Shown here in pieces: positions 24,311 to 26,087 of a DNA stretch of 64,000 bases. The notes under the pieces are model-generated. The model saw only the letters and a list, made by a program, of their open reading frames with translations. It ran no database searches and had not been told where the DNA came from. Both the position numbers and the translations under genes were made by a program. Every line of letters starts with the position of its first letter. The stretch's first letter is position 1. The stretch lies in NCBI RefSeq assembly GCF_053078305.1, contig NZ_CP166879.1. One strand, written 5' to 3'.

Positions 24311-24526
24311 ATGTACCAGATGGAAAAAATCACAACAGGTGTGTCATACACCACGTCAGCGGTGGGAACGGGCTACTGGTTCCTGCAGTTGCTGGACAGG
24401 GTTTCCCCGTCTCAGTGGGCGGCAATAGGCGTGCTGGGGAGTCTGCTGTTTGGTCTGCTGACATACCTGACGAACCTGTATTTTAAAATCAGAGAAGACC
24501 GGCGTAAGGCGGCCCGGGGAGAGTAA
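24311..24526 (+). CDS. Phage-21-type pinholin (S21-like) with dual start
   Basis: [10 protein letters not shown]...[24 protein letters not shown]...[15 protein letters not shown]; Met1/Met4 pair. Confidence 0.75.
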
Positions 24527-24530
24527 AGCG

Positions 24531-25517
24531 ATGAATAACAAATATGAACTGGTTGTAAAAGGGATAAATCATTACCCGGATAAGATAACTGTTACGGTGG
24601 CACTGGAAATTGCCGGTCAGCCGTCGTTGTTGTCGCCATATGTGGCGATTAGTCTTGACCGTACTGAAGGTGCCACGCTGGAATTTTACGAAGCTGAGGC
24701 GAAAAAACAGGCGAAGCAGTTTTTCATGGATGCGGCTCTCGGATTACGCGAAGGGACTGCGCGATGTGGCTTTCAGAATATTTCTTCATGGACAATGCCG
24801 GAAAAAATCGCCACTTACCCGGGGCGTGAAAAGGTCAACGAACCGGTAAAAAATGCGCCTGATGATGTGCAGAGCGCGATGGTTAATGTGGAGCTTCCGG
24901 CACGTGTGACACCAGGAGTGAAAGTCGGGGAAGATTCTCGTCTTGTGCTGACCAAAAGAATAGGCAGCGTGGTCAGTGTTCATATTGATCATGAGGAAGT
25001 TCTGTCGGTTATGTACAGGGAAGACTACGATCCGAAAACAACATTCAGCGACTATGAAGCGAGAGCAAAGGAGTATGCCTTGTCGGTATTTGCTGCGGTA
25101 CGTGGCGAGGACTGTCGTAAAAACGGGCATGAAAGTGATTTTACTGTGCCTGTGTCGGACAAAAACCAGGAACGGGAGTGTAACCGGCCATCCTTTGTTG
25201 TATCCGGTGATGACGGGAAAATCACCATATCAGAAAATGGAAAAGTAACACCGCCATCGCACCAGCACAGTGAGACGCTCATTGAATTTGCCATTGATTA
25301 CCTGAAGAACAATAAAAAACAGGGGCTGATGAAGCGCATTGGTCGCTGCATGGGATATCTGCAGCTGGCGGCAGAGATTGAAGCACTTGCCAGTGGTGCA
25401 GACAGGGATGCTGCGGTGCGGGAGGCTCTTCTTTGTGATTTCAATACGCCACCCTTTAAGAAAGAGCCTGATGGCTGGATCCAGCCGGGGCTGACTTATC
25501 TTAAAGTGCGTATTTAG
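24531..25517 (+). CDS. Uncharacterised 328-aa protein between holin and endolysin
   Basis: Tightly packed in lysis operon (4 nt after holin stop); no motif I recognise. Confidence 0.6.
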   Translation: MNNKYELVVKGINHYPDKITVTVALEIAGQPSLLSPYVAISLDRTEGATLEFYEAEAKKQAKQFFMDAALGLREGTARCGFQNISSWTMPEKIATYPGREKVNEPVKNAPDDVQSAMVNVELPARVTPGVKVGEDSRLVLTKRIGSVVSVHIDHEEVLSVMYREDYDPKTTFSDYEARAKEYALSVFAAVRGEDCRKNGHESDFTVPVSDKNQERECNRPSFVVSGDDGKITISENGKVTPPSHQHSETLIEFAIDYLKNNKKQGLMKRIGRCMGYLQLAAEIEALASGADRDAAVREALLCDFNTPPFKKEPDGWIQPGLTYLKVRI

Positions 25518-25553
25518 TGGGCCAGGGACAGCGGCTGAATATTTAATATATAC

Positions 25554-26087
25554 ATGAACGCAAAAATCAAATACGGCCTGTCAGCTGCTGTTCTGGCGCT
25601 GATTGCCGCAGGTGCGCCTGCGCCTGAAATCCTCGACCAGTTTCTTGACGAAAAAGAAGGTAACCACAGCACGGCATACCGTGATGGTGCGGGTATCTGG
25701 ACCATCTGCCGTGGTGCCACCCGGGTGGATGGTAAGCCTGTCGTCCCTGGCATGAAGCTGTCGAAGGAAAAATGCGACCAGGTTAACGCCATTGAACGTG
25801 ATAAGGCGCTGGCATGGGTGGCGAAAAACATCAAAGTGCCACTGACTGAACCCCAGAAAGCGGGGATCGCGTCATTCTGTCCTTACAACATTGGCCCAGG
25901 TAAGTGTTTCCCGTCGACGTTTTATAAACGAATTAATGCAGGCGATCGCAGGGGAGCGTGTGAGGCGATTCGCTGGTGGATTAAGGACGGTGGCAGAGAC
26001 TGCCGTATTCGCTCAAATAACTGTTACGGTCAGGTATCCCGGAGAGACCAGGAGAGCGCGCTGGCGTGCTGGGAAATCGACAGATAA
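25554..26087 (+). CDS. SAR-endolysin-type lysozyme (R21-like)
   Basis: N-terminal SAR/signal-like segment then EGNHSTAYRDGAGIWTICRG lysozyme core. Confidence 0.8.
   Translation: MNAKIKYGLSAAVLALIAAGAPAPEILDQFLDEKEGNHSTAYRDGAGIWTICRGATRVDGKPVVPGMKLSKEKCDQVNAIERDKALAWVAKNIKVPLTEPQKAGIASFCPYNIGPGKCFPSTFYKRINAGDRRGACEAIRWWIKDGGRDCRIRSNNCYGQVSRRDQESALACWEIDR

Follow-up and report, generated by a model that had tools for sequence, protein, structure and literature searches.

A 64,000-nucleotide stretch of contig NZ_CP166879.1 (NCBI RefSeq assembly GCF_053078305.1), hereafter the window, contains an open reading frame (ORF) of 987 bp and 328 codons on the + strand at 24531..25517. It lies between the genes of a class II (S21-type) holin, S, and an R21-type lysozyme, R. 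The ORF almost certainly encodes a late-operon prophage protein of the DUF1327/YdfR family, placed in the usual slot of that family right after an S21-type holin. Its architecture is, with near certainty, a rare mosaic, in which disordered linkers separate the DUF1327 domain from what is probably a second DUF1327-like domain, and the latter from a conserved helical domain at the C-terminus. It is a new member of a known but uncharacterised family; its slot has a precedent in E. coli K-12, and its combination of domains is unusual. As for its function, we tentatively favor a late cytoplasmic modulator of the host RNase E, which is not a part of the lysis machinery, and regard this as possible rather than probable.

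That the ORF is a genuine gene under purifying selection and not a chance reading frame is near certain, since its product matches the PHROG 1085 profile ('unknown function') from end to end (residues 1-328 on positions 1-296 of 296, E 5e-115), NCBI holds a 328-aa protein 96% identical to it, and the ratio of nonsynonymous to synonymous substitution rates (dN/dS) against the copy in E. coli STEC1585 is 0.27 overall, with 0.19 in the N-terminal part and 0.25 in the C-terminal part. Two ORFs on the opposite strand (24786-25130 and 25052-25294) were set aside because the forward frame has full-length homologs under purifying selection. The initial annotation recognised no domain in the protein. 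However, residues 1-74 match positions 1-74 of 93 of the Pfam DUF1327 model (PF07041) with an i-Evalue of 8e-32 (E 8e-32), and the protein is 43% identical to K-12 YdfR over 74 residues (E 1e-17). Relatives are named 'YdfR family protein' or 'DUF1327 domain-containing protein' by RefSeq. Besides the PF07041 match, the position directly between a class II holin gene and a lysozyme gene, as for K-12 ydfR, is that of a family member. The size is not, as a typical member has a single domain and ~100-150 residues (most matches to the N-domain profile are 85-150 aa long), whereas the window protein has 328 residues and three predicted modules. The protein has a mass of 36.5 kDa and an isoelectric point (pI) of 5.7. 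No transmembrane segment was found along its 328 residues, the maximal Kyte-Doolittle value being 1.05 over 19 residues. With no hydrophobic segment and a mildly acidic pI, it is predicted with near certainty to be soluble and cytoplasmic.

An exhaustive HMMER scan of 1.84 billion representative proteins retrieved only 63 relatives, which fall on three independent match regions of the protein (residues 1-78, ~104-200 and ~213-328). The AlphaFold2 (AF2) model was built from a query-anchored, X-padded alignment; a plain MAFFT alignment misplaced proteins carrying only the middle module onto the N-terminal domain. Three folded units, here called N, M and C, are seen in the model, with disordered linkers at residues 75-110 and 193-217 and a mean predicted local distance difference test score (pLDDT) of 69. 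The predicted template modelling score is as low as 0.36 because the domains are not packed against one another.

Domain N (24531..24758, aa 1-76) is the DUF1327 domain, modelled as three strands (residues 5-14, 18-27 and 37-43) and a 25-residue helix (50-74) with pLDDT values of 66-86. Linker 1 (24759..24866, aa 77-112) is predicted to be disordered, with pLDDT below 50 at residues 75-110, and the HMMER scan found no homologs of it other than near-identical copies. Domain M (24867..25121, aa 113-197) is matched by PHROG 11851 at residues 119-188 and modelled as strands within 117-165 followed by a 25-residue helix (172-196), with a pLDDT of ~75-80. An hhalign comparison of the N profile with the M profile gave a probability of 63% and an E of 7e-5; the N profile against the divergent Salmonella-type N-terminal domain gave 92% and 7e-7, these two domains being homologous. 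Given the N-M profile alignment and the same order of strands and then a 25-residue helix, M is probably a second DUF1327-like domain. Linker 2 (25122..25181, aa 198-217), also predicted to be disordered (pLDDT below 50 at 193-217), is likely the recombination joint to the C module, since similarity to C-module proteins begins near residue 195-213. Domain C (25182..25514, aa 218-328) is a conserved module of a small beta-hairpin sheet and four helices, modelled at residues 222-327 with pLDDT values of 80-94. It carries the motifs GRCMGxLQxAAEIEA and D(F/L)(D/N)xPP(F/L)K..W..PG..YLK, with invariant G, R, P, K, W, P and Y residues in the family alignment. This module is kept from E. coli to Salmonella at 35-40% identity and is also found as a stand-alone protein of 185-213 aa. 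All these features lie on the + strand.

The Prokaryotic Genome Annotation Pipeline (PGAP) of RefSeq treats the STEC1585 copy (locus L004, 12332-13318) and its counterparts in six further genomes as truncated pseudogenes 'missing C-terminus', annotating the first 225 bp only, and the M region carries no RefSeq/PGAP feature in any of the 7 genomes that have it. As the STEC1585 ORF translates in full as an intact 328-aa protein, the pseudogene call is probably an artefact of annotating with the short YdfR reference models.

The initial annotation described the ORF as lying between an S21-type holin and a signal-anchor-release (SAR) endolysin with gaps of 4 and 36 nt, and the coordinates and PHROG matches agree with this. 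The holin gene (24311..24526, + strand; ATG at 24311, stop at 24526) encodes 71 residues that match PHROG 9876 and PHROG 20 'holin' (E 2e-40 and 5e-34). It is ~90% identical in nucleotides to the S genes of Shiga-toxin (Stx) phages and alignable with K-12 essQ, its homologs are named 'class II holin family protein' by RefSeq, and the holins of related loci carry Pfam PF04971 (class II, S21-type). The translated N-terminus, MYQMEK, offers Met1 and Met4 as a possible dual start. The lysozyme gene (25554..26087, + strand; 177 aa; 'lysozyme' in RefSeq) matches PHROG 7 endolysin (E 3e-62), and the lysozymes of related loci carry PF00959. Its translated N-terminus, KYGLSAAVLALIAAGAPAP, is a Gly/Ala-rich hydrophobic stretch predicted to be of the SAR type. 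Further downstream, the Rz gene at 27512-27979 matches PHROG 13 (E 2e-76), and an ORF embedded in its +1 frame (27732-27917) with a lipobox-like LVVSAC is a candidate for Rz1. Hence a class II holin with two start methionines and an Rz with an embedded Rz1 are both present, as in a phage-21-type cassette, but the adjacency of holin and endolysin is broken by the 987-bp ORF.

At the junction of S and the ORF (24515..24533, + strand), GGGGAGAGTAAAGCGATG, a GGAG within the final holin codons is followed by the holin stop codon, a 4-nt spacer (24527-24530) and the ATG of the ORF. In the alignment of such junctions, GGAGAG-TAA-4 nt-ATG is common to the window, the K-12 Qin prophage, Stx2_95, PhiR5_1 and Stx2-86, and in 933W, which has no such gene, the same GGAGAGTAA plus 4 nt runs straight into R. 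We infer from the sequence that translation of the holin and the ORF would be coupled here. The 36-nt spacer ahead of R (25518..25553, + strand) is AT-rich and shows no obvious Shine-Dalgarno sequence, either by itself or in the junction alignment, unlike the situation in 933W, where R is served by the GGAG within the last holin codons. Because of this difference, insertion of the ORF between S and R may change the ratio at which the two are translated.

Two terminator-like hairpins, both predicted by a pattern scan on the + strand, bound this unit, one at 24244..24273 with a 13-pair stem and a T-rich tail, and a strong one at 26178..26210 with a 15-pair stem and a T run. The former sits between the DUF826 gene and the holin start, within the late operon. 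No promoter-like or terminator-like site was found by consensus scan on the + strand between 24311 and 26087. Given the lack of such internal sites and the flanking hairpins, the co-expression of the ORF with S and R late in infection, as the initial annotation proposed, is a sound inference from the sequence. The layout of a classical moron, with its own promoter and terminator, was not seen in the consensus scan, and the gap to the holin is only 4 nt.

RNase E binding is the only tested property of the DUF1327/YdfR family. A two-hybrid library screen recovered codons 1-72 of ydfR three times, and this fragment gave stronger two-hybrid signals with RNase E constructs; full-length YdfR gave a signal with Rne1-597, and Strep-YdfR co-purified Rne1-598-FLAG together with DNase-resistant nucleic acid (Gopel et al., RNA Biol 2026, PMC13232886). 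The RNase E-interacting fragment of YdfR is exactly the DUF1327 domain. The RNase E reading is ranked first since no other hypothesis is backed by experiments on a homologous domain, and it also fits a family that is not bound to the gap between S and R. By analogy with YdfR, the N domain of the window protein, and M with it, may bind RNase E and affect RNA decay. In such a mechanism, the protein would be an accessory product of the Q-dependent late transcript, made together with S and R but standing outside the holin-endolysin-spanin machinery. Its DUF1327 domain or domains would dock on the catalytic N-terminal half of RNase E, possibly also on RNA, in the way of residues 1-72 of K-12 YdfR, and the docked protein would change how RNA is processed or decays late in infection. 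The tandem of N and M might provide two binding sites for the multimeric RNase E, while the C domain might add a second partner.

Several points weigh against this reading. Overproduction of YdfR altered few transcripts and left growth unimpaired, a contaminant carrying the RNA could not be excluded by the authors, and the two-hybrid signals varied with linker length and Rne construct (PMC13232886). The RNase E data cover K-12 YdfR only, to which the window N domain is just 43% identical, and nothing ties the M or C domains to RNase E. An acidic pI of 5.7 is atypical for an RNA binder, and a double-stranded RNA-binding domain (dsRBD) fold was not recovered, the tandem-dsRBD matches in Foldseek having an E of 0.03 and a probability of 0.35. 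Moreover, the tight, conserved coupling to the holin stop in E. coli phages could equally mean a role in lysis.

[quoted passage not shown] The window protein would then be bivalent through N and M, with C as an extra effector or partner domain, and the fused, split and reordered modules of its relatives in E. coli and Salmonella prophages would represent an undescribed two-component system. We consider this a long shot. Phage-encoded modulators of RNase E are known, namely T4 Srd, T7 gp0.7 and phiKZ Dip, all from virulent phages and made early. Should the RNase E lead prove right, the window protein would join them in targeting the main mRNA-decay enzyme of the host and, like T4 Srd, would act on the N-terminal catalytic half of that enzyme. 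It differs from all three in being encoded beside the lysis genes in the late operon of a temperate phage, and no sequence or structural similarity to PDB entries was found for it.

Database searches for function returned little besides the family itself. No match was found in NCBIfam for the 328-aa protein, in PADLOC-DB 2.0 for a defence family at E up to 1, or in Pfam beyond DUF1327 for the protein and at all for the C-domain alignment. The eight PHROG matches are all of 'unknown function' and include none of the lysis category. Neither the whole protein nor the N, M and C profiles had a PDB sequence match below E 0.1, and Foldseek against the PDB gave nothing at E <= 0.001, tandem dsRBD proteins and LptE being its top, non-significant matches. 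No similarity in sequence or fold to known lysis regulators (LydB, RI/RIII) was seen in PHROG, Pfam, NCBIfam or the PDB, and the C and N profile searches found no fusion to an annotated domain. In the literature on DUF1327, YdfR and genes between S and R, nothing useful was found except the RNase E paper (PMC13232886).

The closest known system is the Qin prophage of K-12, where essQ, ydfR (b1555) and rrrQ follow one another with the same 4-nt spacer after the holin gene. The N-terminal 74 residues of YdfR are homologous to those of the window protein. In contrast to the latter, with its extra folded M and C modules and a 36-nt spacer before R, YdfR is a 103-aa protein made up of one domain and a short helical tail, and the ydfR stop codon and the rrrQ start overlap. 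Many Stx1a and Stx2c phages and some Stx2a phages likewise carry a family member in the S-R slot. The arrangement is no exception. PHROG 1085 proteins of Stx phages (BCI50300 of Stx2_95, 329 aa; gp05 of Stx2-86, 268 aa) occupy this slot with N and C modules and are 54-56% identical to the window protein over the full length. However, their middle is a coiled-coil and/or a 'SITVKSAGEEG' segment instead of M, which is otherwise found in N-M proteins lacking C (P0091 and P0110).

The distance between S and R was surveyed in 60 phage records, sampled evenly from the 359 with a match to this cassette. The two genes are adjacent in ~38 of the 60 (754-bp span, as in 933W), which partly supports the statement of the initial annotation that they normally are; yet ~14 of the 60 have an insert, mostly a short YdfR-type gene (~11 records, ~1150-bp span) and in a few cases something longer, and 104 phage records encode a relative of the ORF in a tblastn search, all annotated as hypothetical, YdfR or DUF1327. 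A family member is present in ~29% of the phage records with this cassette type, while most cassettes have none. The relatives are thus common and annotated, as might be expected of a recognised lysis accessory, but they have no known role. Among 5426 complete E. coli genomes, DNA resembling the N domain occurs in 1227 and DNA resembling the C domain in 785, whereas the middle 409 bp (M) is found in only 7. Neither the slot nor the family is unusual; what is rare is the N-M-C combination.

The C and N profile searches extend the family to Salmonella, Yersinia, Citrobacter and E. albertii. Foldseek against AFDB50 retrieved only its own uncharacterised family, from Escherichia, Shigella, Salmonella, Citrobacter and Rosenbergiella. 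Judged by these searches, the family is confined to Enterobacterales prophages. K-12 YbcV and YdfO were considered as further DUF1327 proteins and dropped; RefSeq assigns YdfO to DUF1398. In Salmonella prophages and three metagenomic contigs, relatives with N and C modules lie downstream of Q and upstream of the holin, and a small gene on the opposite strand often follows them. Every family member examined is located within ~2 kb of a class II holin gene and a PF00959 lysozyme gene. What stays constant is a promoter-proximal place in the late operon, close to a class II holin, rather than a location in the S-R gap itself.

These distributions bear on the alternative that the protein modulates the timing of lysis. 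Being soluble and made in a fixed ratio with the pinholin, it would bind the cytoplasmic C-terminal tail of S21 or the unreleased SAR endolysin and thereby delay or sharpen triggering; if so, it would represent a lysis regulator of a new, soluble class. Antiholins that are soluble and have their genes next to that of the holin are known in P1 (LydB) and T4 (RIII), and the window protein would share their logic, although not their sequence: its gene, too, directly adjoins the holin gene and is expressed along with it, and the product is cytoplasmic and of small to medium size. The ORF stands immediately 3' of the holin gene, with the GGAG-stop-4 nt-ATG junction kept in K-12 Qin and Stx phages, neither promoter nor terminator is seen within the three-gene unit, and the proximity of all members examined to a class II holin and a PF00959 lysozyme also suits such a role. 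In addition, the Keio ydfR mutant scored as envelope-leaky, being listed as a hit in the chlorophenol red-β-D-galactopyranoside (CPRG) screen of Paradis-Bleau 2014 (cited in PMC13232886). We did not retain this phenotype as good evidence for a lysis role, since the ydfR stop overlaps the rrrQ start and a polar effect, with read-through from the kan cassette into the SAR lysozyme gene rrrQ, is a likely confounder. Furthermore, about two thirds of the sampled S21-type cassettes, including that of 933W, work without the gene, so that, unlike LydB and RIII, a gene of this type is dispensable in most of them. The holin has a possible dual-start antiholin motif of its own (M1/M4), the Salmonella-type relatives stand upstream of the holin with an opposite-strand gene in between, and the protein has neither a membrane segment nor a lysis-category PHROG match. 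The position of the Salmonella and metagenomic relatives and the many S21-type cassettes without a family member weaken a strictly lysis-mechanical role, and we hold lysis timing to be unlikely as the function of the gene.

The modules of the family are extensively shuffled. Relatives join N with the coiled-coil segment, the 'SITVKSAGEEG' segment, M and/or C, and N-M proteins without C occupy the same S-R slot. In other E. coli prophages (L012/L013, 3001-3897), this slot holds a split and reordered version, with a 213-aa protein of coiled-coil and C beginning 3 nt downstream of the holin stop and a 75-aa DUF1327 protein encoded separately after it; its cluster representative was seen on 203 contigs. 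The occurrence of N and C as fused, split or reversed modules in the same slot suggests that they act together. In the comparison with the STEC1585 copy, M differs at 1 of 408 nt while the synonymous divergence (dS) of C is 0.19, which is a sign of recombination. Two apparent tandem DUF1327 proteins (P0056 and P0060) were dismissed as assembly artefacts, as they contain exact internal duplications.

A small gene on the opposite strand follows many members of the family, e.g. at 4085-4399 (-) of locus L003, 5722-6039 (-) of L010 and 2378-2713 (-) of L006. One family of such genes (Stx2-86 gp06-like, ~105 aa) accompanies them in the S-R slot of E. coli as well as between Q and S in Salmonella, and a second one, annotated as DUF1823 in PhiR5_1, occurs at L002 and L014. 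The window has no such companion gene. The family member and the opposite-strand gene may form a mobile two-gene cassette.

Such mosaicism, with N, the coiled-coil, 'SITVKSAGEEG', M and C recombined, split and reordered, would be expected of a conflict factor, i.e. a late exclusion, anti-defence or inter-phage competition protein, in which module shuffling reflects an arms race and the variable middle sets the target. The contrast between M and C in the above pairwise comparison, the limitation of the family to prophages of Escherichia, Shigella, Salmonella, Citrobacter and Yersinia, and the presence of other accessory genes (two methyltransferases, NanS-p and small membrane ORFs) in the Q-to-Rz region of the window are in keeping with it. 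However, PADLOC gave no match at E up to 1, and dN/dS values of 0.2-0.3 point to purifying and not diversifying selection where measurable. No promoter-like site for expression in the lysogen was seen, ydfR is not expressed in growing K-12 cells, and overproduction of YdfR gave no toxic phenotype (PMC13232886). We consider a conflict factor rather improbable. The lysis-timing, defence and exclusion functions proposed by the initial annotation have no direct support, given that there is no PADLOC or lysis-PHROG match and no membrane segment, and that distant members lie upstream of the holin; the only experiments on the family indicate binding to RNase E instead.

Alternatively, the ORF might be a dispensable passenger, put together by recombination from YdfR-family fragments and retained because insertions are tolerated here and leave the cassette working. 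Only 7 of 5426 genomes have the N-M-C combination, many database relatives are truncated or frameshifted, PGAP calls the closest copy a truncated pseudogene, and S and R function side by side in most phages. But that call is probably an annotation artefact, the frame is intact over 328 codons in both the window and STEC1585, and dN/dS amounts to 0.27 for the whole gene and 0.25 for the C domain. Each of the three modules has a predicted fold (pLDDT about 70-94), and the C module is conserved from E. coli to Salmonella with its invariant motifs. A passenger is accordingly judged very unlikely. What probability remains beyond the RNase E, lysis-timing, conflict and passenger explanations is assigned to something else.

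The surroundings of the ORF are the late region of a lambdoid prophage that is Stx-phage-like but lacks stx. The Q antiterminator gene (17522-18094) is followed by a DNA methyltransferase gene (18659-19717), tRNA-Met, tRNA-Arg(TCG) and tRNA-Arg(TCT) genes (19758-20009), and a 167-aa ORF (20107-20610) matching PHROG 632, which is labelled 'tellurite resistance'. Then come the genes of a NanS-p-type esterase and of DUF1378 and DUF826 proteins, and the S-ORF-R unit. The position of the 167-aa ORF, between the tRNA genes and the NanS-p esterase gene, is what we take to be the stx site in Stx phages. On the 3' side of R lie two small membrane-like ORFs (26211-26426, PHROG 1115; 26443-26572, PHROG 3246), a second, N6/N4 DNA methyltransferase gene (26580-27515, PHROG 67) whose stop overlaps the Rz start, Rz/Rz1 and the terminase. 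Salmonella prophages (L010) and E. coli (L013) share the order lysozyme-methyltransferase-Rz; in 933W, the Ant antirepressor occupies the endolysin-Rz slot instead of the methyltransferase.

Genes of unknown function in the lysis cassette are common in Stx phages and E. coli prophages, DUF1327 DNA being present in 1227 of the 5426 genomes, and the late region that houses them also controls toxin release. A gene such as the one described here would not surprise a specialist in Stx or lambdoid phages. What is gained is a corrected annotation for copies listed by RefSeq as truncated pseudogenes, a domain map and a concrete lead, namely RNase E, by which the function of the family becomes testable. 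If the family indeed targets RNase E, lambdoid phages would have their first known factor of this kind, one that ties RNA decay to when cells lyse and toxin is released.

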